From Patescibacteria group bacterium (lineage in GTDB: Bacteria; Patescibacteriota; Minisyncoccia; Phycocordibacterales; Phycocordibacteraceae), in contig JAHJYC010000004.1 of the NCBI GenBank assembly GCA_018826905.1, positions 62,674 through 126,673 of the forward strand: 64,000 nt of DNA, read 5' to 3'. A program made the translations under genes and the position numbers. How positions within the stretch are numbered: position 1 is the stretch's first letter; each line of letters opens with the position of its first letter. Of this stretch, positions 28,058 through 44,527 are shown one piece after another. The notes under the pieces are model-generated. The model made no database searches, was not told where the DNA came from, and saw nothing but the letters and a program-made list of their open reading frames with translations.

Positions 28058-28888
28058 GTGACCACTGACCCTCTTCCGCTAATTGGCGTTGTTGGCCCTA
28101 CAGCCTCTGGAAAGACCGCTCGTGCTATTGCTCTAGCTAAGGAGCACAACGGTGAGGTTATCTCCGTTGATTCAAGACAGGTGTACAGAATGCTTGATAT
28201 AGGAACTGAAAAGATATCGGTTTCTGAAATGCAGGGGATTCCCCATCATCTTATTGATATCTGTGATCCCCATGAGGTTTATAGTGCGGGTGACTTTGTG
28301 CGAGATGCAGAAAGATTAATTGAAGACATTCGTGCTCGCGGAAAGCGTCCCATTCTCGCAGGAGGGACGCACTTTTATTTTGACGCGCTTTTGTATGGAC
28401 TTCCTGAAGGAACACCAAGGAATGAGAAGTTACGGGAAGAACTTGAACAGCGTTCTCTCTCAGATCTAGTGGAAGAAGTCACACGACTTGATCCACGTCG
28501 TGCTGAAAGACTAGACCCGCAAAACAAAAGAAGGATTATTCGTGCGCTAGAAATCATTCATGACAGAGGCTCTGTTCCTCCACGTGAACGAGGAGAACCT
28601 GCGTACGATATTGAATGGGAGGTTTGCAACCCTGAACGAGACGTCCTTCGTGAGCGAATAGCAACAAGGCTTGTCTTGGCATTTGAACGAGGACTCATTG
28701 AAGAAGTTCGTGTGGTGCGTGCATATGTGGGAGACGAGCGCCTGAATGAGCTTGGCCTTGAGTACAAGATTGTTGGAGAATTCCTAAGAGAGGAGAGAAG
28801 CGAATCTTCTCTCCTCCCCATTCTCTCTTCAAAACTTTGGCATTATGCCCGCCACCAAAAGAGTTGGCTCCGTACGCTTGTTATCTGA
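28058..28888 (+). CDS. miaA: tRNA dimethylallyltransferase
   Basis: GPTASGKT P-loop, SVDSRQVYR, DxxQ region; start placed at GTG just upstream of the P-loop. Confidence 0.85.
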   Translation: MTTDPLPLIGVVGPTASGKTARAIALAKEHNGEVISVDSRQVYRMLDIGTEKISVSEMQGIPHHLIDICDPHEVYSAGDFVRDAERLIEDIRARGKRPILAGGTHFYFDALLYGLPEGTPRNEKLREELEQRSLSDLVEEVTRLDPRRAERLDPQNKRRIIRALEIIHDRGSVPPRERGEPAYDIEWEVCNPERDVLRERIATRLVLAFERGLIEEVRVVRAYVGDERLNELGLEYKIVGEFLREERSESSLLPILSSKLWHYARHQKSWLRTLVI

Positions 28889-29783
28889 GAGGACTACACA
28901 CTCCATTGCGTACCTCAATATCCCAGTGATCTGACTCGCGAGTGTAGGAATTGCCACACTTATCAATGTATATCGGGTCTCCGTTACTTCTGCTACCACC
29001 CGATCTAAGTCCTTGAAGAAAAGTGTTTACTTCATTACTTAGCGAGATATCAATCTTGTATCCGTTTGTGTGCCCAGAAGAATGCCCTGTCTCAGTCCCA
29101 CCGGTTACCTGCACCGTACAGTTACAGTTTTCCTTAACAGCCACAGCTTGGCGAACGGTTGCTTCATGCATTCCGTCTAGCGATGTACACCTTGGGTTTG
29201 ATTTATCTGAACAGTTTCCTGACGAAGAAACACCAATACCAGCAGCTTGCAGTATTGCTGCGGCTTGCGCGTGCGTCATACTCCCAGGTGTTCCTCCCCC
29301 TCCTCCGCCGCCTCCTCCTCCAGTCACCGGTCTTATAGTGTCAGCGAGAGGTTGTGTGTCTCTCTTTTGAATACAGTCATCACCTGTGCCTGTAAGAATA
29401 GTGTTCCAAGGCCCAAACTGTCCTCCGTACAGGGTCTTCATAACGAAGTCCACGATAAGCCACGCAGAAAGCACAATCATGATGCCTATAGCAGCATTTA
29501 TGAGCATCTTATTTGCAGTACTTCTGCTCTCTGGATTTGCTGAAGAGAATATATACAAAGCACCTCCCCACGCGATGATAATCGTCGCAACAATAATAGA
29601 GAGGGAAATCATGATGTTCATGACGTTCTGGATGAGTTGCATCACTCCCCCAAACCCGCACGGACACGCCTTACACATCTCAGGAACAATTGGGCCAAAG
29701 AAAGAGGCTTGCGCAGCAAAAGCAGTAACAGGGGTGACTGCTATAAAAACAAAGAAGACGAGAGAGATAAATAAATATTTCAT
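28881..29783 (-). CDS. VirB2/TrbC-like pilin module fused to a Cys-rich C-terminal domain with poly-Gly linker
   Basis: Signal peptide; LQLIQNVMN motif; two TM helices separated by a short polar loop; GGGGGGGGGG linker; 300 aa. Confidence 0.5.
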   Translation of the reverse strand: MKYLFISLVFFVFIAVTPVTAFAAQASFFGPIVPEMCKACPCGFGGVMQLIQNVMNIMISLSIIVATIIIAWGGALYIFSSANPESRSTANKMLINAAIGIMIVLSAWLIVDFVMKTLYGGQFGPWNTILTGTGDDCIQKRDTQPLADTIRPVTGGGGGGGGGGTPGSMTHAQAAAILQAAGIGVSSSGNCSDKSNPRCTSLDGMHEATVRQAVAVKENCNCTVQVTGGTETGHSSGHTNGYKIDISLSNEVNTFLQGLRSGGSRSNGDPIYIDKCGNSYTRESDHWDIEVRNGVCSPLR

Positions 29784-29786
29784 GTG

Positions 29787-30359
29787 TTACGGAAGTCTAA
29801 CTGATTGAGGGCATGCACTAAATCCAACAGTACCATCTGCAAAACGATCATTTATCCAGTACGGGACGCCTACATAGGCATTCAAGAGACACAAACTTTC
29901 TCTAGACACTCCGAGACGCTCTATAAGAAAGGTCTCTGCTGCAAGCCGAGATTCGTTTAGAGGCTCCTTTAGAAGGACAACAGTAAAGAACTGTTTCTGT
30001 GAATCGTAAGAAATTGAAAACCGGTCAGAGCTTGCTCCCTGCGGGCAAGTGCCGTCAGCAAGACAGTAGCCCAGGTCTCCCGCAAGAACATAATTGCCAG
30101 GATTCACTGGATCGCTCACCGTCTCTCCGTTATGAATAAAGTCATTCACCTGTAGTTCTCCTTCTCCTGTAGAAAGGGTCGTACTCTCAGTTGTGGTGAA
30201 GCTTGAAGGAAAGAGTCCTTCTGTTGGAAGGAGCTGTGTATCGTTAGGATTCTCAGTACTTGAAGTACCTGTTATGGCGATGAACGCGACAACGAGAACA
30301 ATAAGGACAGCAAGTCCAAGGAGTACGGAGGCAAGAATGAGTACTGTGCGATTTTTCAT
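29787..30359 (-). CDS. membrane-anchored hypothetical protein (Thr/Ser-rich)
   Basis: N-terminal TM helix; no recognised domain. Confidence 0.45.
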   Translation of the reverse strand: MKNRTVLILASVLLGLAVLIVLVVAFIAITGTSSTENPNDTQLLPTEGLFPSSFTTTESTTLSTGEGELQVNDFIHNGETVSDPVNPGNYVLAGDLGYCLADGTCPQGASSDRFSISYDSQKQFFTVVLLKEPLNESRLAAETFLIERLGVSRESLCLLNAYVGVPYWINDRFADGTVGFSACPQSVRLP

Positions 30360-30368
30360 ATAGTCATA

Positions 30369-31418
30369 TTACCCTCCAGAGAAGCGTGCGACACATGCTT
30401 TCTGTGCAGTACTGCGCGGATCAGCTGTCCAATCACTAAAACTTGGACGTTCCTTTAAGAGACACGCCGCAGCAGAAACATTACACGTTAAGTTGGCTGC
30501 AGCAGCACGACAGACACGAGCAAGCTCTTCCATTCCTGCCTTTACTCTCCCGCCACTAAACGCAGTTGAGCAGTTAAGGTTTCCGGTTCCTGTCCACCCG
30601 GCGCTTTTTGCTGCCTGTGTGCACACAGGGATATTAAGGTTATGACACTTGTCGTTATACCCCATAACTATCTGGAACATACCGTGTGCTGTTGTTGGTC
30701 TTCCATCAACTGTACGTGCACCCGAAATGTTTGTGCCGCAAGAGCTTTCTGGCTTTGCAATACAGGAGAGTGTGTTTGCTTGTGCTTGTGTAATACGATA
30801 CCCGCCTGCAGCAGCTGCACTCAAAATTGTTGAGGGCGCGCAGTTCCCATACCCAACACTCGCAGGGCCTCCAGCGTATCCCCCAGAACCCCCTGGAACT
30901 TGCGTGATGCCTGTAGCAAGGCCCGGAGGTGCTTCGTCAGGCGCAGTGATGCAGAAATCTCCTCCTACAAGGATGGTGTTCCATGGACCAAACCCTGCAG
31001 TATCTCCGTCATACAGAGTCTTCATAACGAAGTCCACGATAATCCAGCCAGAGAGCATAATCAGGAATCCTACAACTGCATTCGTAAGCATCTTCTTTGC
31101 TTGCGAATGATTCTCAGGGTTTGTTGAGGTAAGTATCCAGAGCACACCTGAGAACATGATAACGAGTACGAAAATAACAATACCCAAAGACACAGCTCCA
31201 TTCATGACGTTCTGAATAAGCTGGAGTGTGCCTGCAAAACCTAGAGGAGCTCCTGGAGAGCAGCTCTCGTCTAACTCTGAAGGATCAGGAACTAAGTGCC
31301 AGTCGGGGTCTAGAAGAGGCAGATTTGCGGCTTCTGCTGCTACAGGGAGCGATCCCATAAAAAGCACGAAGAGAAGGAGCAGGGCAAGGTGCCTATTCAT
31401 AGAATCATTGTATAGCAA
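30369..31418 (-). CDS. VirB2/TrbC-like pilin module fused to a lytic-transglycosylase (SLT)-like C-terminal domain
   Basis: N-terminus paralogous to the 28881 gene (LQLIQNVMN, GFGPWNTIL); C-terminal KPESS...GA...GMFQI resembles the ES...GA.GLMQ SLT motif. Confidence 0.5.
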   Translation of the reverse strand: MLYNDSMNRHLALLLLFVLFMGSLPVAAEAANLPLLDPDWHLVPDPSELDESCSPGAPLGFAGTLQLIQNVMNGAVSLGIVIFVLVIMFSGVLWILTSTNPENHSQAKKMLTNAVVGFLIMLSGWIIVDFVMKTLYDGDTAGFGPWNTILVGGDFCITAPDEAPPGLATGITQVPGGSGGYAGGPASVGYGNCAPSTILSAAAAGGYRITQAQANTLSCIAKPESSCGTNISGARTVDGRPTTAHGMFQIVMGYNDKCHNLNIPVCTQAAKSAGWTGTGNLNCSTAFSGGRVKAGMEELARVCRAAAANLTCNVSAAACLLKERPSFSDWTADPRSTAQKACVARFSGG

Positions 31419-31478
31419 CGCTCACGTCCTCTGCTTCTTTTCCCACACCCCAGAGTCTGGTATCGTGTCAACTGAAGG

Positions 31479-31551
31479 GCCTATAGTTTAATGGTAGAAC
31501 GTCGGTCTCCAAAACCGTCGGCCGAGGTTCGATTCCTCGTGGGCCCGCTGA
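31479..31551 (+). tRNA. tRNA-Trp (anticodon CCA)
   Basis: Anticodon loop CUCCAAA, T-loop GGTTCGATTCC; close to the E. coli tRNA-Trp anticodon arm. Confidence 0.7.
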
Positions 31552-31602
31552 CAAATTATCCAAATAGCGTATACTCCTGCCCAGACGAGGAGGAGCTCGC
31601 AA

Positions 31603-31812
31603 ATGCGATACCGATGGAACGCTGCCTGCCAATTCAACAACGTATTCATGCAGGAGCATGGCTCACGCGCAGAGGTTGCAGTAATTGCCGAAAACCAGAC
31701 GAGTGCTGAAAGACTCGCCAAGCTGGAAGTCTGTCACAAGCTCGGCATCTCAACCATGATGCATGGCGGAGTGAAGATCATAAGCATCAACAATATGGGC
31801 CGTGCACGATAG
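31603..31812 (+). CDS. small hypothetical protein
   Basis: GGAGGAG SD 7 nt upstream of ATG; followed by hairpin terminator. Confidence 0.45.
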   Translation: MRYRWNAACQFNNVFMQEHGSRAEVAVIAENQTSAERLAKLEVCHKLGISTMMHGGVKIISINNMGRAR

Positions 31813-31814
31813 AA

Positions 31815-31856
31815 CCCACCAGAGAACACTACTCTCCCTGGTGGGGTTTTTCTTTT
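31815..31856 (+). terminator. Rho-independent terminator (CCCACCAG...CTGGTGGG plus T-run)
   Basis: 8-bp stem followed by TTTTTCTTTT. Confidence 0.65.
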
Positions 31857-31860
31857 AAAC

Positions 31861-31892
31861 GAGATAAAGAAGAAACCGCCCTCTCGGGCGGC
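31861..31892 (-). terminator. Rho-independent terminator for rpmG (CCGCCC-TCTC-GGGCGG plus T-run on minus)
   Basis: Hairpin plus T-run in the minus orientation, right after the rpmG stop. Confidence 0.6.
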
Positions 31893-31898
31893 TTTTCC

Positions 31899-32051
31899 TT
31901 ACTTCTTCACTTCCTTGTAGATTTCGCGTGTGCGAGTGTTTGGATCAAACTTCTTAAGTTCAATCTTTCGCTCTACTTTCTTCTTATTCTTACGAGAGCG
32001 GCGGACGTGTCCTGACGCTGAGCGCAATATGATGAGGCGATCCTGTGACAT
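31899..32051 (-). CDS. rpmG: 50S ribosomal protein L33
   Basis: KIELKKFDPNTRTREIYKEVKK matches L33 C-terminus (KLELRKFDP...IYKEAK); start at internal Met. Confidence 0.8.
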   Translation of the reverse strand: MSQDRLIILRSASGHVRRSRKNKKKVERKIELKKFDPNTRTREIYKEVKK

Positions 32052-32082
32052 AGATAGGAGGACTATAGCAGTAGACCAGAGA

Positions 32083-34804: not shown

Positions 34805-35557
34805 TTACAGATCTTCTGCGGTGAGAAGGGTGGAAATCTTATCTGCTGGAGCAAAGAGTCCTGGGACACTTGTTGCGATACCAATGACATCTCCTGAGAT
34901 GTTCACCGCCGCAGCACCAGCTGGAACACCCGTTACGTTTGAACGAATTCCGTCTGCATCAATCTTTGAGATTATGCCAGTTATAGCGCTATTGTCGCGC
35001 GTGAGTGCAATAAGCGTCTGGCCTTGCTTCAATTCTGCTGAAGGAATCAAATCTGGAACTGGTCCGCTCGGAAGTACTTGGCTATCAGAGAAACCGTAGA
35101 CCGTAAGTGTTGCTCCTGGTTTTGAGAGTGATGCCTCAACAGTCGTTCCGTCTGGGAATGAAATAGTTGCTTCCTTCGGGAGCCCTACTGCAGTTGCGGT
35201 AACAACTGCACGAGAATTAGACAGGTAGGTCCCCACCGCAAGAACAGGGGTGGTGGTAGCTCCCTTGCGGATATATACCGTGCGCGCAGCATTTGCACTG
35301 ATCGCTGCCGCCATAAGATCTTCGTTCTTGATCACCACCGTAGTTTCCTTCGTTACAATTCCAGGAATTGGTGCTGCTTGTGCTGCCTGCTCCACTGTTC
35401 TCTCTACAATTCTATTTACCGTCTGGGTCACTGTCGGCGGAGCCTGGTCTAGCAAAGAGACCGTCATAACGGCTGTCGCTATAGCCGTTACAAAGTTAAC
35501 CAGAATGGTAAGTAGGAGCAACTGTGTTTTTGAGAGATCCTCTATATTCATATGCAA
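34805..35557 (-). CDS. membrane-anchored trypsin-like (HtrA-fold) protein, probably catalytically inactive (Ser to Ala)
   Basis: [18 protein letters not shown] aligns to HtrA GNSGGALVN..G.LIGIN with Ala at the nucleophile position. Confidence 0.45.
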
Positions 35558-41056: not shown

Positions 41057-41416
41057 CTACTGAGAAGCAGGAAGTGTTGGTGCGTAATCAGGAACGTTGT
41101 TGTTGAGCTGAACAGATCCGCGAAGGATGTTCACAAGTCCCCATACAGACACCATGATGAAGAATCCGATGATTCCCCAAAGCATAAGTGACTTTCCAGT
41201 CTCACGCTTCTCTTCGTCATGACCACCCAAGATGAAGTATTGGAATACTCCCCAGATGAATACGATGAACGCGATAGCAAATACAACCGGAACGAGTACG
41301 GAGTTAATAAGATTAACAACGCTTGAACCAAGCGTGCCAACGTTTGAAGCGTTCACCTGCGCAAATGCAAATAGCGGCAGAGCGAAAGCGGCACCAATGT
41401 AACTAAGTTTCTTCAT
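41057..41416 (-). CDS. VirB2/TrbC-like small pilin family protein (paralog 4)
   Basis: Signal peptide; VVNLINSVLVPVVFAIAFIVFIWGVFQYF..GGHDEEKRETGKSLMLWGIIGF motif series. Confidence 0.55.
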   Translation of the reverse strand: MKKLSYIGAAFALPLFAFAQVNASNVGTLGSSVVNLINSVLVPVVFAIAFIVFIWGVFQYFILGGHDEEKRETGKSLMLWGIIGFFIMVSVWGLVNILRGSVQLNNNVPDYAPTLPASQ

Positions 41417-41514
41417 AAGTAGGGATTACGGGTAACGCAGTACGTATCCCTTAAGGATAGACTGGAATGGCTGTGCGTCAATAGAGAGCAGACAGCTATG
41501 TGGAAAACATGAAG

Positions 41515-41907
41515 CTAAGAGGGCGGATTAAATGTAGGAAGCTTTGGTACATTTTGTCCTCCAAACCCGAAGGATGCGACAAGAAGATTTACCAACCCCC
41601 AAAGTGAGAGCATCACTACAAAGGCTATAATGCCCCACATAACGAGCTTCTTTCCCTCTTCACGCTTCTCTTCACTCGCTCCTCCGAGTACAAAGTACTG
41701 GAATACTCCCCAGATGAATACGATGAAGGCAATGGCGAAAACGAGAGGAACAATGTACGTATTAATAAGACCCACAATACTCTTCATGTATTCTCCAAGG
41801 TTTGCTCCACCCAGGGCTCCATTTGAAGAAGCCCCCTGAGCAAGCACCGGTAAATACATGAGCTGTGAAGCAATTGCGAAAGCAAAGGCAGTGATAAATA
41901 GTTTCAT
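41515..41907 (-). CDS. VirB2/TrbC-like small pilin family protein (paralog 3)
   Basis: Near-identical core to paralog 4 (IVPLVFAIAFIVFIWGVFQYF...EEKREEGKKLVMWGIIAF). Confidence 0.55.
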   Translation of the reverse strand: MKLFITAFAFAIASQLMYLPVLAQGASSNGALGGANLGEYMKSIVGLINTYIVPLVFAIAFIVFIWGVFQYFVLGGASEEKREEGKKLVMWGIIAFVVMLSLWGLVNLLVASFGFGGQNVPKLPTFNPPS

Positions 41908-41946
41908 ACTGTTATGGTAGCAGACTAAATAAGAAGCAATTCTGTG

Positions 41947-42261
41947 TTATACACCAGTGCCTGGAATTGCAGTGAGGAAGAGCTTAACAATCCCCCAGAC
42001 TGAAAACAGCACCACAAATCCAATAACACCCCAGAGCATGAACTGTTTTCCCTTCTGGCGATGTTCCTCTCCACCAAAGAAGAAGAACCGCACCATTCCA
42101 ATTAAGAAGAAGATAAACGCAAATGCATACAGAAGCGGGATAACTGAATCATTTACGAGCGTCACAATTGAGGCGGTGAGTTCTTTAAAAGAAGCGCCGA
42201 ACGCAACGTGAGGCGTTAGTGCAAGAAGACCAACAAAGGCAATCGCTCTTTTAAACATCAT
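41947..42261 (-). CDS. VirB2/TrbC-like small pilin family protein (paralog 2)
   Basis: Signal peptide, TM, GGEEHRQKGKQFMLWGVIGF, TM. Confidence 0.5.
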   Translation of the reverse strand: MMFKRAIAFVGLLALTPHVAFGASFKELTASIVTLVNDSVIPLLYAFAFIFFLIGMVRFFFFGGEEHRQKGKQFMLWGVIGFVVLFSVWGIVKLFLTAIPGTGV

Positions 42262-42686
42262 AGAGCGCTTACCGTTCCTTCAATTACAAGTCCTATTGCT
42301 TTAGCACCAAGAAGCACAAGTCCTCCGATAACTGTCCACATAAGGGCGCTACGAGCGCTTCTGATTTTCTCTTCGTTTCCTTGTGCTGCTACGAATTGAA
42401 ACCCAACATACACAAGCGCCAAAATGAGGACAATTGTTCCCAACTGAACAACGGCATCAAGAATTGCATTTAAGAACTGAGGAAGCGTACAAATATTGTT
42501 GAGAGGATTTTTTAGTCCAGTGCCTGCCGCACCACATCCTGAAGCCCCACCAGAGCCTGTAGGTCCTCCTGAAGTACCTCCTGATCCCGTAGACCCTCCT
42601 GACCCTTGTGCAGCAACCATGAGAGGCAGCATAAACACCACTACGGAGGCTGCAGCACCTTTGTACATCTTGAATAAAGTGGTCAT
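42258..42686 (-). CDS. VirB2/TrbC-like small pilin family protein (paralog 1) with Gly/Ser-rich linker
   Basis: Signal peptide, GSGGSTGSGG low-complexity stretch, NNICTLPQFLNAI (compare VirB2 NNICTFILGP), two TM helices around NEEKIRSARSALMW. Confidence 0.55.
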   Translation of the reverse strand: MTTLFKMYKGAAASVVVFMLPLMVAAQGSGGSTGSGGTSGGPTGSGGASGCGAAGTGLKNPLNNICTLPQFLNAILDAVVQLGTIVLILALVYVGFQFVAAQGNEEKIRSARSALMWTVIGGLVLLGAKAIGLVIEGTVSAL

Positions 42687-42690
42687 AGAA

Positions 42691-43995
42691 TTATTTTAGT
42701 GCTGCTGTAAGTGACTGGTCAGCGGTATACAGAGCGTCCCGCACTGCCTCCCGTCCACTAATAACGTTCCCTACCATCGTACCAAAGATGCGATCTAGCG
42801 TTGTTGGTTCTGGGGAGAGCCAGCCACGCGCAATGAGTGCTTCTGGGAAATACACCGGTTCATATAAATCTCCAGAGCGAGGCGCAAGCAGCCCACGCTG
42901 TGCTGGAGCCACACCAAGTGCATGTGCAATCATAGGAAGCGATTCTTTCGCCGTAAGTCCCATAGCGGCACGGAAGGCTCCTGAGCTGTTCCTAGAAGAC
43001 TTTGGAATCGCAAACGCATACACCTTTCCGTAGGTCATACGTGTCGCAAGTGTTGCAGGAGTTGGTGTTGGTGCCATATCAAAGTCCAGGTTTGGATTTG
43101 CCTCAGCCAAAAGCTCGCGCTCTGAAGCGTACCCTAGGTAAAGACCAAGGTCTCCTGCAATAAATGCTTCACGACTCTTTGGGAGCGAACGGTTCCAGGA
43201 ATACACTGTCTTCCCTGGGTTTGCGAACTCTGTATAGAAGTTAAGAGCGCTTTCAGCTGGAGAACTACCGAAGGTCTGTGTTGTGGTCCGAGAAAGGTTT
43301 GATCGCATTCCTGTTGGAGTTTGTTCGCTAATTGAATATCCGGACTGAAGGAATAAAAGAGAAACAATGCCTCTTGCATGATCAACATTCTCATACGTAC
43401 CGAGCGCTATGAGGCTACGGGAAATAGTCTGTGCATCTGTAAGACGGTTTATAGCAGCAGCAAGCCCAGTAACCGCTTCCCAGGTTGAGGGGGGTCGTGC
43501 AGCTCCTGCTCCTGCAAGCACTGGCCGGTTGTAATAGAGCATCATAGGATCAACAACAAACGGTACCCCGTATGTTCCTCCTTCAGTAAGAAAGAGCTCT
43601 GAAATAGGGAGATAGGAATCCCGGAATGTTCTCTCTGAGATTGAAGAAGAAGGGATCACAGAAATCTTATTCTTTGTTGCAAGCAAGTCTTCTTGTGAAA
43701 TAAGAATAAGATCTGGTCCTTGTCCCGATGCTATTGCCTCTGCAAGATCTGAGTTAAAGGTTTCTTGAGGTCGTGATACATACGATACTCCCCCAAACTC
43801 TGGATTGGTCTGTTTGAGTGTATTAATACTGAGCGTCATTGCCTCAGAGGGAAGCGTGCCCCAGATAGTAACCGTGCCGAGCGGTTTTACCCCACTAGAA
43901 AATCCTTGGAAGTTTGCAAAGAGAAAAAGCCCGAGCAATGCTATGAGACCAAATATGGCCATAACGACAACCTGAAATGGTTTAAGATTCGCCAT
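42691..43995 (-). CDS. extracellular solute-binding protein (ABC transporter SBP family 1-like), membrane-anchored
   Basis: N-terminal TM helix, then periplasmic binding-protein-like sequence (GTVTIWGTLP..., LILISQEDL). Confidence 0.5.
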   Translation of the reverse strand: MANLKPFQVVVMAIFGLIALLGLFLFANFQGFSSGVKPLGTVTIWGTLPSEAMTLSINTLKQTNPEFGGVSYVSRPQETFNSDLAEAIASGQGPDLILISQEDLLATKNKISVIPSSSISERTFRDSYLPISELFLTEGGTYGVPFVVDPMMLYYNRPVLAGAGAARPPSTWEAVTGLAAAINRLTDAQTISRSLIALGTYENVDHARGIVSLLFLQSGYSISEQTPTGMRSNLSRTTTQTFGSSPAESALNFYTEFANPGKTVYSWNRSLPKSREAFIAGDLGLYLGYASERELLAEANPNLDFDMAPTPTPATLATRMTYGKVYAFAIPKSSRNSSGAFRAAMGLTAKESLPMIAHALGVAPAQRGLLAPRSGDLYEPVYFPEALIARGWLSPEPTTLDRIFGTMVGNVISGREAVRDALYTADQSLTAALK

Positions 43996-43996
43996 A

Positions 43997-44527
43997 TTAT
44001 GGTGCGGTAAATACTATGGAGTAATGATGTGGTCCTGCTCTAAAGTCTTTCACTTTATGAAAGCCTCCGGTAATAAAGAGCTCCTCAGCTACGTGCTCTG
44101 AAACAACCCTATGTGGAAGAGGTCCCATGCCTCCATACGCTCCTGCCCAATCTATAACAAGAAGTCTTCCTCCTGAGGTAAGAATTCTTTTTATCTCTGC
44201 AATAGCTCCCTCTCTGTGATCCAATTGAAAGAGTGTATTTGAAAGAATAACGGCATCCAGAGATGCATCCCTGAGCTTTGTGCCTCCGAGCTTCTCAAAG
44301 TTTCCCCAAACGGTTTCTACATTTCGCAGTCCCCGCTCCTGTGCAGCATCGCGCACATGCTTCAAAATATCCTCCTGTATATCAACGGCATATACTTTGC
44401 CACTTGCTCCAACGATATTTGCTGCAGCGAGAGCATAGTGCCCAGAACCAACTCCAAGGTCTCCAACCTTCATTCCTTCTCGCAAACCGAGTTGCAAGAC
44501 ATTGTTGCGAGGATCACTAAAATTCAT
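43997..44527 (-). CDS. class I SAM-dependent methyltransferase
   Basis: VGDLGVGSGHYALAAA motif I; VDIQED motif II. Confidence 0.75.
   Translation of the reverse strand: MNFSDPRNNVLQLGLREGMKVGDLGVGSGHYALAAANIVGASGKVYAVDIQEDILKHVRDAAQERGLRNVETVWGNFEKLGGTKLRDASLDAVILSNTLFQLDHREGAIAEIKRILTSGGRLLVIDWAGAYGGMGPLPHRVVSEHVAEELFITGGFHKVKDFRAGPHHYSIVFTAP

Follow-up and report, generated by a model that had tools for sequence, protein, structure and literature searches.

VirB2-type pilin modules joined to predicted peptidoglycan hydrolases in a conserved gene cassette of Patescibacteria

Two fusion genes and the membrane protein gene between them

The stretch of DNA analyzed here (the window) comprises 64,000 nucleotides of contig JAHJYC010000004.1 from a Patescibacteria group bacterium (assembly GCA_018826905.1, positions 62,674 to 126,673). 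Its small housekeeping genes, and exact matches of its proteins to metagenome-derived NCBI proteins with the label Patescibacteria group bacterium, are in keeping with a chromosome of this group. It contains a cassette of three tightly packed open reading frames (ORFs), all on the minus strand, whose coordinates are given in Table 1 together with those of the other features discussed. The outer two ORFs encode proteins of 349 and 300 amino acids (aa), which begin with the same type of pilin module and end in different domains, one lysozyme-like and the other of the fold found in LAS zinc peptidases. The ORF between them encodes a 190-aa single-pass membrane protein that we name Mid190. An earlier reading of the window, made from the sequence alone and referred to below as the original prediction, had located the ORFs in this region and had described the middle protein as membrane-anchored and rich in Ser/Thr; both the location and the description are accurate. 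The gaps between the three ORFs are 9 bp and 3 bp, and the genes therefore probably form a single operon. At their 3′ ends (28881-28888), the 300-aa gene and miaA, which is convergent with it, share 8 bp, leaving no space for a terminator between them. A scan of promoters and terminators gave counts that were not above those of shuffled sequence. The true start of the 349-aa gene is likely the ATG at 31400, which would give a protein of 343 aa, because the exactly matching NCBI protein has this length and the homologues begin at this position; the numbering used below is that of the 349-aa ORF.

Table 1. Positions of the cassette, its domains and neighboring features in the window
Feature	Position	Strand	Remarks
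Pilin-lysozyme-like fusion gene	30369..31418	-	349-aa ORF from TTG 31418; NCBI MBU1500809.1, annotated 'pilin'
N-module of 349-aa protein, residues 25-164	30927..31346	-	PF18895 match at residues 66-131 (31026-31223)
Predicted lysozyme-like catalytic domain, residues 190-349	30372..30851	-	10 Cys; Glu224 codon at 30747-30749
Gene of 190-aa single-pass membrane protein (mid190)	29787..30359	-	ORF
Pilin-LAS peptidase fusion gene	28881..29783	-	300 aa; exact match to NCBI MBU2080866.1, annotated 'pilin'
N-module of 300-aa protein, residues 18-145	29349..29732	-	PF18895 match at residues 49-114 (29442-29639)
Poly-Gly linker, residues 155-164	29292..29321	-	10 Gly; read from sequence
Predicted LAS (Hedgehog/DD-peptidase fold) zinc-peptidase domain, residues 165-300	28884..29291	-	predicted Zn ligands His238, Asp245, His286
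miaA	27986..28888	+	convergent with the 300-aa gene
clpB-cassette gap	31419..32082		
tRNA-Trp	31477..31548	+	ARAGORN; between cassette and clpB
250-aa membrane-anchored protein gene	34805..35557	-	adjoins clpB
Four small pilin genes (119, 130, 104 and 142 aa)	41057..42686	-	PF18895 E 4e-12 to 4e-9
434-aa membrane-anchored protein gene	42691..43995	-	no Pfam match
SAM methyltransferase gene	43997..44527	-	
'tRNA-???'	7948..8023	-	ARAGORN; four-base anticodon (atca)

Over 141 aa, the N-terminal modules of the 300-aa and 349-aa proteins have 50% identity (BLASTP E=3e-42), in agreement with the original prediction that the two share an N-terminus and diverge in their C-termini, and the common stretch contains the sequences LQLIQNVMN, IVDFVMKTLY and FGPWNTIL. 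Both modules score above the gathering threshold (GA) of 26.6 bits of Pfam family PF18895 (T4SS_pilin), with 38.1 bits for the 300-aa protein and 40.2 bits for the 349-aa protein, so that the proposed homology of the N-termini to pilins holds. Weaker matches were obtained to TrbC/VirB2 and to the NCBIfam Mbov_0395 family of pilin-like conjugal transfer proteins (E 1e-4 and 3e-8, respectively, for the 300-aa protein), and PF18895 matched at E<=0.01 in 40 out of 46 homologues of the lysozyme-like fusion. Neither protein had a Pfam or NCBIfam match to the class III signal peptide / N-methylation motif (IPR012902). Judged by these matches, the modules are pilins of the VirB2 type, i.e. of type IV secretion systems (T4SS), and not type IV pilins.

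The N-termini are ordinary signal peptides ending in AFA or AEA that are followed by a two-helix hairpin. From the N-terminus, the predicted module comprises a signal peptide that is cleaved off, a stretch containing Cys, a pair of long hydrophobic helices with a short loop that has basic residues between them, and a conserved (F)GPWN...C motif. In the AlphaFold2 (AF2) model of the 349-aa protein the helices span residues 61-96 and 101-136; hydropathy places the hydrophobic segments at residues 67-101 and 109-136. Cys53 and Cys156 of this protein flank the helical hairpin and are at least 90% conserved in a 46-sequence alignment, and Cys40 and Cys137 of the 300-aa module are invariant in 46 pilin-LAS proteins. 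This conserved Cys pair may form a disulfide staple across the ends of the hairpin; all Cys residues lie in predicted outside segments, in even numbers. The topology of VirB2/TraA is established, and by analogy with it, and by the positive-inside rule, both ends of the hairpin would face outward, which would make the C-terminal fusions extracytoplasmic. A Foldseek comparison found weak, non-significant similarity of the 349-aa model to the T-pilus (8exh) and to an archaeal conjugation pilus (8dfu). The module is the best-conserved part of the proteins, with 56-71% identity in relatives that have a different C-terminal domain, which argues that it is more than a passive anchor.

The window also contains an array of four small pilin genes of the same Pfam family (Table 1). 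The original prediction had the fused N-termini matching this small pilin family, motifs included. The match stands at the level of the family (hidden Markov model E 1e-12 to 3e-5 for the four small pilins against the N-module profile), and only there: none of the four contains a literal LQLIQNVMN or GPWNTIL motif, these being confined to the fused proteins and their kin. The fused modules therefore constitute a subfamily of their own, of which a free 174-aa member is present in the related locus L079. The array is preceded by a gene for a 434-aa membrane-anchored protein, and this in turn by an S-adenosylmethionine (SAM) methyltransferase gene. The same order of methyltransferase, 434-aa protein and pilin array was found in relative L059 (positions 1-4775), in which the first pilin gene of the array is a pilin-LAS fusion. 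This ties the fusions to the small-pilin locus, and we regard the small pilins as candidate major subunits of the same apparatus.

The lysozyme-like and LAS-type C-terminal domains

The C-terminus of the 349-aa protein had been called lytic-transglycosylase-like because of a KPESS...GMFQI segment. A search with residues 150-349 produced 52 homologues, all but four of them about 320-350 aa long (two of the four short ones are marked partial), so that orthologues do keep the fusion; those with a named source are labeled Patescibacteria, Paceibacterota or Parcubacteria. The motif reads CIAKPESSCG...AHGMFQI in the 349-aa protein, and E224, S225, A244, G246, Q249 and nine Cys residues are invariant in the 46-sequence alignment. 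When the profile of the whole alignment was compared with the PDB it matched human c-type lysozyme (E ~2e-3), with CIAKPES aligned on CLAKWES, which contains the catalytic Glu35, and AHGMFQI aligned on DYGIFQI. A domain-only profile, in which the lysozyme-like domain was merged with two related pilin-fused families, matched c- and i-type lysozymes with a best E of 2.4e-4 and one unrelated protein among the 60 rows listed; this alignment begins at the first Cys, which equals lysozyme Cys6. The matches to GH22 lysozyme PDB profiles are weak (E 2e-4 to 1e-2), and the Cys correspondences beyond Cys6 fall in non-significant parts of the alignment. The AF2 model has a mean pLDDT of 82.9, with 83-98 for 10-residue blocks of the C-terminal domain, mostly above 90, and its helices and strands follow each other in an order compatible with the lysozyme fold. 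A Foldseek search of this model against the PDB gave nothing below E=4, and single-sequence PDB searches with both large proteins gave noise only. Together these results indicate, with moderately high confidence, that the domain belongs to the lysozyme-like superfamily, and the fold that had been proposed is thus upheld by the profile matches to c- and i-type lysozymes.

Its place within that superfamily appears to be separate. No match was found to Pfam Lys at E<=1 or to Pfam SLT (PF01464), and SLT_3 (PF18896) scored 15.5 bits in the 349-aa protein against a GA of 27; SLT_3 matches occurred in 8 of the 46 members, all below the gathering score (best member E 1.4e-4). A relation to canonical SLT was rejected, since an hhalign comparison of the lysozyme-like profile with the SLT domain of a sister fusion (P0243, see below) found none. 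By these comparisons the domain is a member of neither GH22 nor Pfam SLT. It shares with c- and i-type lysozymes and with SLT_3 the C-x-A-K-x-E-S helix end, the G-x-F-Q-I strand and Cys6, and with c- and i-type lysozymes also the richness in Cys, the secretion and the order of secondary structure elements, but it is larger than GH22 enzymes (~160 aa, with 10 Cys) and has Ala244, which is invariant, at the position of lysozyme Asp52/53; related famB proteins have Ser there. The pairing of E-S with G-x-F-Q-I around a single catalytic Glu agrees with the E-S/G-L-M-Q pattern of SLT-type enzymes. Goose-type lysozymes and lytic transglycosylases normally work with a single Glu, and the chemistry predicted for this domain would be of the same kind. 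With a single carboxylate, a muramidase and a lytic transglycosylase cannot be told apart from sequence, and of the earlier designation the lysozyme-like part with its motif is therefore retained while the choice of a lytic transglycosylase is not.

For the 300-aa protein the original prediction had named a poly-Gly linker and a Cys-rich domain. Both are present, the linker as 10 consecutive Gly, and the Cys-rich domain behind it can be identified further as a putative LAS zinc peptidase, so that both large proteins are predicted to be muralytic. Fold matches of this C-terminal domain were to three Hedgehog N-domain entries (7.3, 7.1 and 6.3), VanX (6.8), MepA (6.3) and VldE (5.7). Its S-H-x-N-G-Y-K-x-D sequence has the H/G/D spacing of the VanX/VanY signature, and the H-x6-D and E-x-x-H motifs are intact, with Glu283 as the predicted catalytic base; E283-x-x-H286 presumably corresponds to E181/H184 of VanX. 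The metal site was assigned by motif spacing and not by superposition. In 46 fusion proteins, residues H238, G241, D245 and H286 never vary and the conservation of E283 is at least 90%, and the same conservation is seen in 49 free homologues. The domain had no match to any Pfam or NCBIfam model, those of M15, VanY and Peptidase_M15_x included, its profile found no LAS protein in the PDB, and an hhalign comparison with a VanY set was not significant. We therefore consider it a distinct family within the LAS fold, with a predicted intact active site. In contrast to the solved LAS metallopeptidases with which it was compared (VanX, MepA, VanY/LdcB, the Streptomyces albus Zn DD-peptidase and the Hedgehog N-domain), to which it has no significant sequence match, it contains additional conserved Cys residues and the motif T-G-G-T-E-x-G-H.

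All homologues obtained with residues 165-300 as the query were free secreted proteins of ~150 aa; they came from Streptomyces (some with PG_binding_1), from Lentzea and from two animals, Adineta vaga (a rotifer) and Folsomia candida (a springtail), and one homologue had an SH3 domain. The domain also occurs as a small secreted protein in Ktedonobacteria, Chloroflexi and Myxococcales. The spread of this family is illustrated by entries P0061, P0066 and P0088 and by L040-L081. The homologues in the two animals suggest that an antibacterial enzyme was transferred into animals.

Conservation of the cassette and exchange of its catalytic domains

An exhaustive phmmer search with the 300-aa protein against 1.84 billion cluster representatives (50% identity) resulted in 7,486 matches at E<=1e-3. 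The pilin module is present in 149 of the best 150 of these representatives, and 110 of the best 150 match pilin and LAS domain over the full length, so that the architecture exists in at least 110 clusters. The remaining representatives among the best 150 combine the same pilin module with other C-termini. Those above the Pfam threshold are SLT (62.9 bits), VanY (50.2 bits) and DUF4329 (69.3 bits); matches to CHAP, NlpC/P60 and SLT_3 are weak. One protein, P0243, joins pilin module, SLT and LAS in a single chain. The DUF4329 fusion (P0115, 326 aa) is not obviously a hydrolase, and we take DUF4329 to be a polymorphic-toxin domain; likewise not obviously a hydrolase is the 'SGRRT..DQ' domain common to fusions P0146 and P0249. 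Pilin-muralytic fusions, which had been expected to be unusual, are thus not rare, and they are annotated only as 'pilin'. Probably, hundreds of database proteins with this label are enzymes.

The genomic context was analyzed through look-ups of four homologues and a scan of GTDB species representatives with an 11-sequence pilin-LAS alignment. The order pilin-glycosidase, 190-aa protein, pilin-peptidase is conserved between clpB and miaA in about 35 species-representative genomes of Patescibacteria. On the clpB side, the conserved order is IF2, aminotransferase, a 250-aa protein, ClpB and a variable insert, and the cassette is followed by MiaA, peroxiredoxin, ParB, RelA and TopA. The 250-aa membrane-anchored protein of the window has a faint trypsin-like match that is below threshold (E 0.059), and a gene of about this size lies at the same clpB-side position in nearly all related loci, as compared by position and size.

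The glycosidase slot is usually occupied by the lysozyme-like type of the window; L016 has a related 'CN.ES.G...GLWQIN' type, and L079 a canonical SLT (30.7 bits, above GA). The third gene always has a domain of peptidase type, and this type is swapped among loci. The LAS type of the window is present in about 10 loci, and other types occupy the slot in 29 third genes, a number that includes three copies of one L001 gene on duplicate contigs. Ten of these 29 have a 'TEAYPP..CHxNGTCxD' domain (Shh-like), whose profile matches only Sonic hedgehog N-domains (E 0.01), and nine a 'SSISD..HYGG..AVDF..HLHVS' domain (HYGG/HLH) with LAS-like motifs and no database match. VanY is found in seven (Pfam above threshold in the representative), NlpC/P60 and CHAP in one each (weak Pfam matches in the representatives), and the last one, not classified by BLAST, is the canonical-SLT fusion of L079. 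L001, the closest relative with known context, whose lysozyme fusion is 71% identical to that of the window, already has a different peptidase domain.

Mid190 consists of an N-terminal transmembrane (TM) helix, a Ser/Thr-rich linker and a domain of ~120 aa with conserved C99, C105, C157 and C183. It had no match in Pfam, NCBIfam, PHROG or the PDB. Among its 30 homologues, 28 are 185-208 aa long, and every one with a named source is from Patescibacteria. The gene lies between both pilin fusions in 32 glycosidase-fusion loci, whatever the flanking catalytic domains, and in each of the four glycosidase-fusion loci that lack it a contig end interrupts the locus. Since Mid190 stands beside every catalytic type, it tracks the constant pilin modules and not one enzyme, which makes a role as domain-specific immunity protein or inhibitor unlikely; it may be a partner in structure or assembly.

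In relatives, the interval from clpB to the cassette, beside a tRNA, is a hot spot of insertions, five of them having one (L001, L015, L030, L031 and L079). The L001 insert (1143-7863) carries genes for a serine recombinase, a Rep protein, a helix-turn-helix protein and Mrr/HNH nucleases; those in other genomes contain large PG_binding_1+fn3 proteins, a P-type ATPase or SNF2/ResIII genes. Elsewhere in the window, the 'tRNA-???' listed in Table 1 could be a false call, a tRNA whose loop is unusual or one that resembles frameshift suppressors.

Possible roles and relation to known systems

Patescibacteria, or candidate phyla radiation, account for a large part of the diversity of bacteria and grow attached to other microbes. 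A survey covering 3,035 of their genomes found VirB2-like pilins in 1,948 assemblies, in many cases arranged in arrays and in many cases close to virB4; most VirB2-bearing genomes are without VirB1, whose role other glycosidases may fill, and fusions are not mentioned (PMC12102498). T4SS and VirB2-like pilins were essential in one patescibacterial system that was tested (PMC10633639; PMC12857230). In Ca. Southlakia epibionticum, the essential T4SS cluster has genes for a protein that combines two lysozyme-like domains with a Cys protease (SEML1_0006), one with a Hedgehog/DD-peptidase domain (SEML1_0007) and VirB4 (SEML1_0008) (supplement, PMC10633639), along with six PF18895 pilins, SEML1_0014-0019 (PMC10633639; PMC12102498). 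Functions that are separate but clustered in Southlakia are fused here, which provides a Rosetta-stone argument for a functional link between them. No published description of VirB2-pilin-hydrolase fusions was found in the literature searched, including PMC12102498 and the supplement of PMC10633639.

The fused pilins resemble the VirB2/TrbC pilins of PF18895, for example SEML1_0014-0019, in Pfam family, in signal peptide and two helices, and in the presence of an array of small paralogues. However, known PF18895 pilins are ~100-150 aa long, have no extra domain and are usually encoded near virB4, whereas the fused ones are 300-349 aa long, carry C-terminal enzyme domains of 136-160 aa, have their own conserved Cys pair and GPWN motif and have no T4SS gene nearby. 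Monoderm VirB1-like hydrolases include TraG of pIP501 (SLT+CHAP), PrgK of pCF10 and CwlT of ICEBs1. These have in common with the cassette the combination of glycan and peptide cleavage, which is predicted here at the level of the cassette, and the membrane tether on the outside, and SEML1_0006 and SEML1_0007 are of the same fold classes as the two cassette enzymes. The cassette differs from the VirB1-like and Southlakia proteins in that it splits the activities over two proteins, uses pilin modules as anchors instead of a plain TM helix, lies outside T4SS loci and employs catalytic families, SLT_3/GH22-like and LAS, without a Pfam model. Grafting of modules onto pilins is established for type IV pili, where pilins such as PilB and PilC of Streptococcus sanguinis carry a C-terminal module on a short linker and many alternative modules occur on one scaffold (PMC8179133). 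Those pilins belong to an unrelated superfamily, with a class III signal peptide, one long N-terminal helix and type IV pilus machinery. The cassette is a combination of known kinds, namely VirB2-like pilins, VirB1-like hydrolases and modular pilins, in a fusion that is widespread but hidden under the label 'pilin'.

The interpretation that we favor, as lying somewhat on the probable side, is that the fusions are modular VirB2-type pilins that are linked to a pilin apparatus and carry peptidoglycan hydrolases. After cleavage of the signal peptide, the conserved two-helix hairpin would remain in the membrane, stapled on the outside by its Cys pair and with both ends directed outward, and a flexible linker would display an extracytoplasmic, disulfide-rich enzyme. 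In the 349-aa protein this cargo would be a single-glutamate glycan cleaver (muramidase or lytic transglycosylase), and in the 300-aa protein a LAS zinc peptidase cutting peptidoglycan peptides. The two fusions and the co-inherited Mid190 would constitute a wall-breaching unit, a glycosidase/peptidase pair comparable to two-domain VirB1-like hydrolases, which would work at, or be carried by, a pilin-based structure of the T4SS type. The sister fusions with SLT and VanY, the three-domain protein P0243, the L059 array and the Southlakia comparison support this interpretation.

Several observations weigh against it. VirB4, VirB6 and other T4SS machinery genes were not found in the 64-kb window, and no T4SS machinery gene lies within ~10 kb of the cassette in the ~35 relatives, where the neighbors are housekeeping genes; large unlabeled ORFs scanned near the relatives' cassettes code for products such as restriction enzymes, PG_binding_1/fn3 proteins and a P-type ATPase. 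An association of VirB1 homologues with VirB4 is reported for Paceibacteria (PMC12102498), so that a substitute hydrolase may be needless there. No gene that co-varies with the catalytic domains, as one for immunity might, accompanies the enzymes. A globular domain of ~150 aa is hard to pack in a filament of the VirB2 type, so that the fusions would at best be minor or tip subunits. Moreover, enzymatic activity, pilus incorporation and localization are themselves predictions.

Part of these observations would be expected if the proteins were housekeeping autolysins that use a pilin-derived hairpin as a mere anchor and serve growth of the own wall or separation of daughter cells, without any link to a pilus or T4SS. 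We consider this a possible but doubtful explanation. The cassette is vertically inherited in a fixed housekeeping neighborhood (IF2, clpB, miaA, parB, relA, topA), the tether keeps the enzymes next to the wall of the cell that makes them, changes of the catalytic domains leave the middle gene unaffected, as expected if no immunity is needed, and domain shuffling is common among ordinary autolysins. A precedent is the mycobacterial Rpf-RipA pair, in which a single-Glu lysozyme/SLT-like glycosidase and an endopeptidase cut the wall cooperatively; Rpf and RipA, however, are secreted or septal, have no pilin module and belong to other families, and no sequence link to the cassette was found. Against autolysins, the N-module is conserved beyond the needs of an anchor, including its outside-facing motifs and Cys pair, and the same module family makes pilin arrays, one of which, in L059, is headed by a fusion. 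A constant self substrate is difficult to reconcile with a peptidase slot that can hold any of six domain types. Finally, free relatives of the LAS domain occur as small secreted proteins in Streptomyces, Myxococcales and Ktedonobacteria and, via likely transfer, in animals, a pattern typical of antibacterial enzymes.

The same evidence bears on the target of the enzymes. The wall of the host or partner cell seems the leading candidate at somewhat less than an even chance, because the peptidase slot is swapped among relatives and free LAS relatives are secreted by antagonistic bacteria; the LAS relatives in animals, the toxin-associated DUF4329 variant and the epibiotic lifestyle also point to a host-directed role. 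The fixed housekeeping neighborhood, the lack of nearby T4SS genes, the lack of an immunity gene varying with the catalytic domains and the tether beside the own wall speak for a self role, and local opening of the own wall for the apparatus is an appreciable, if lesser, possibility; general autolysis takes up the remainder. A bolder version of the apparatus-linked interpretation, which we put forward tentatively and regard as rather unlikely in its full form, is that the fusions are the first enzyme-bearing T4SS pilins, minor or tip subunits of a VirB2-type pilus that bring to the host bacterium's wall a glycosidase and a peptidase of exchangeable type, with the type of peptidase tracking the peptidoglycan chemistry of the host.

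It is improbable that the C-terminal domains are catalytically dead binding modules and the proteins adhesive modular pilins for wall glycan or peptide. Hedgehog N-domains, which have the LAS fold, act as ligands, and the lysozyme-like domain is without the second carboxylate of c-type lysozymes. Modules of type IV pilins, moreover, are described mainly as binding modules, at least in the portion of PMC8179133 drawn on here. Yet the catalytic Glu and the G-x-F-Q-I motif are invariant in 46 homologues, and the metal and base set of the LAS domain (H238, D245, H286, E283) is invariant or nearly so in 46 proteins. As noted above, a single Glu is the normal catalytic equipment of two kinds of glycan-cleaving enzymes, and the SLT and VanY domains of sister fusions are bona fide, with scores that exceed the Pfam threshold. 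Least probable of all is that a mobile element left the cassette behind, as either a holin-endolysin-like lysis module, which a two-TM hairpin beside muralytic domains superficially resembles, or a polymorphic toxin with Mid190 as immunity protein, which the C-terminal swapping, the DUF4329 variant, the small gene following the lysozyme-like gene and the adjoining integration hot spot at tRNA-Trp might recall: no C-terminal domain and no part of Mid190 has a PHROG match, on which ground a prophage or endolysin origin was rejected, the cassette stays put in ~35 genomes with insertions falling beside it, the 190-aa gene is unchanged when catalytic domains change, and the N-module matches pilin and not holin models and has a cleavable signal peptide before its hairpin.

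The conserved fusion of pilin and hydrolase constitutes a Rosetta-stone link, indicating that peptidoglycan cleavage and the pilin apparatus act in concert. It offers two small soluble domains, each with predicted catalytic residues, and a conserved partner protein, and adds three families without a database model: a bacterial lysozyme of GH22/SLT_3-like type, a LAS peptidase common to Streptomyces, myxobacteria, rotifers and springtails, and the 190-aa protein. The swappable peptidase slot could report host specificity. If the fusions do act as tip pilins, they would provide Paceibacteria-type episymbionts with contact-dependent breaching of the host wall, and this would explain the role of the enigmatic, essential pilin/T4SS apparatus of Patescibacteria.

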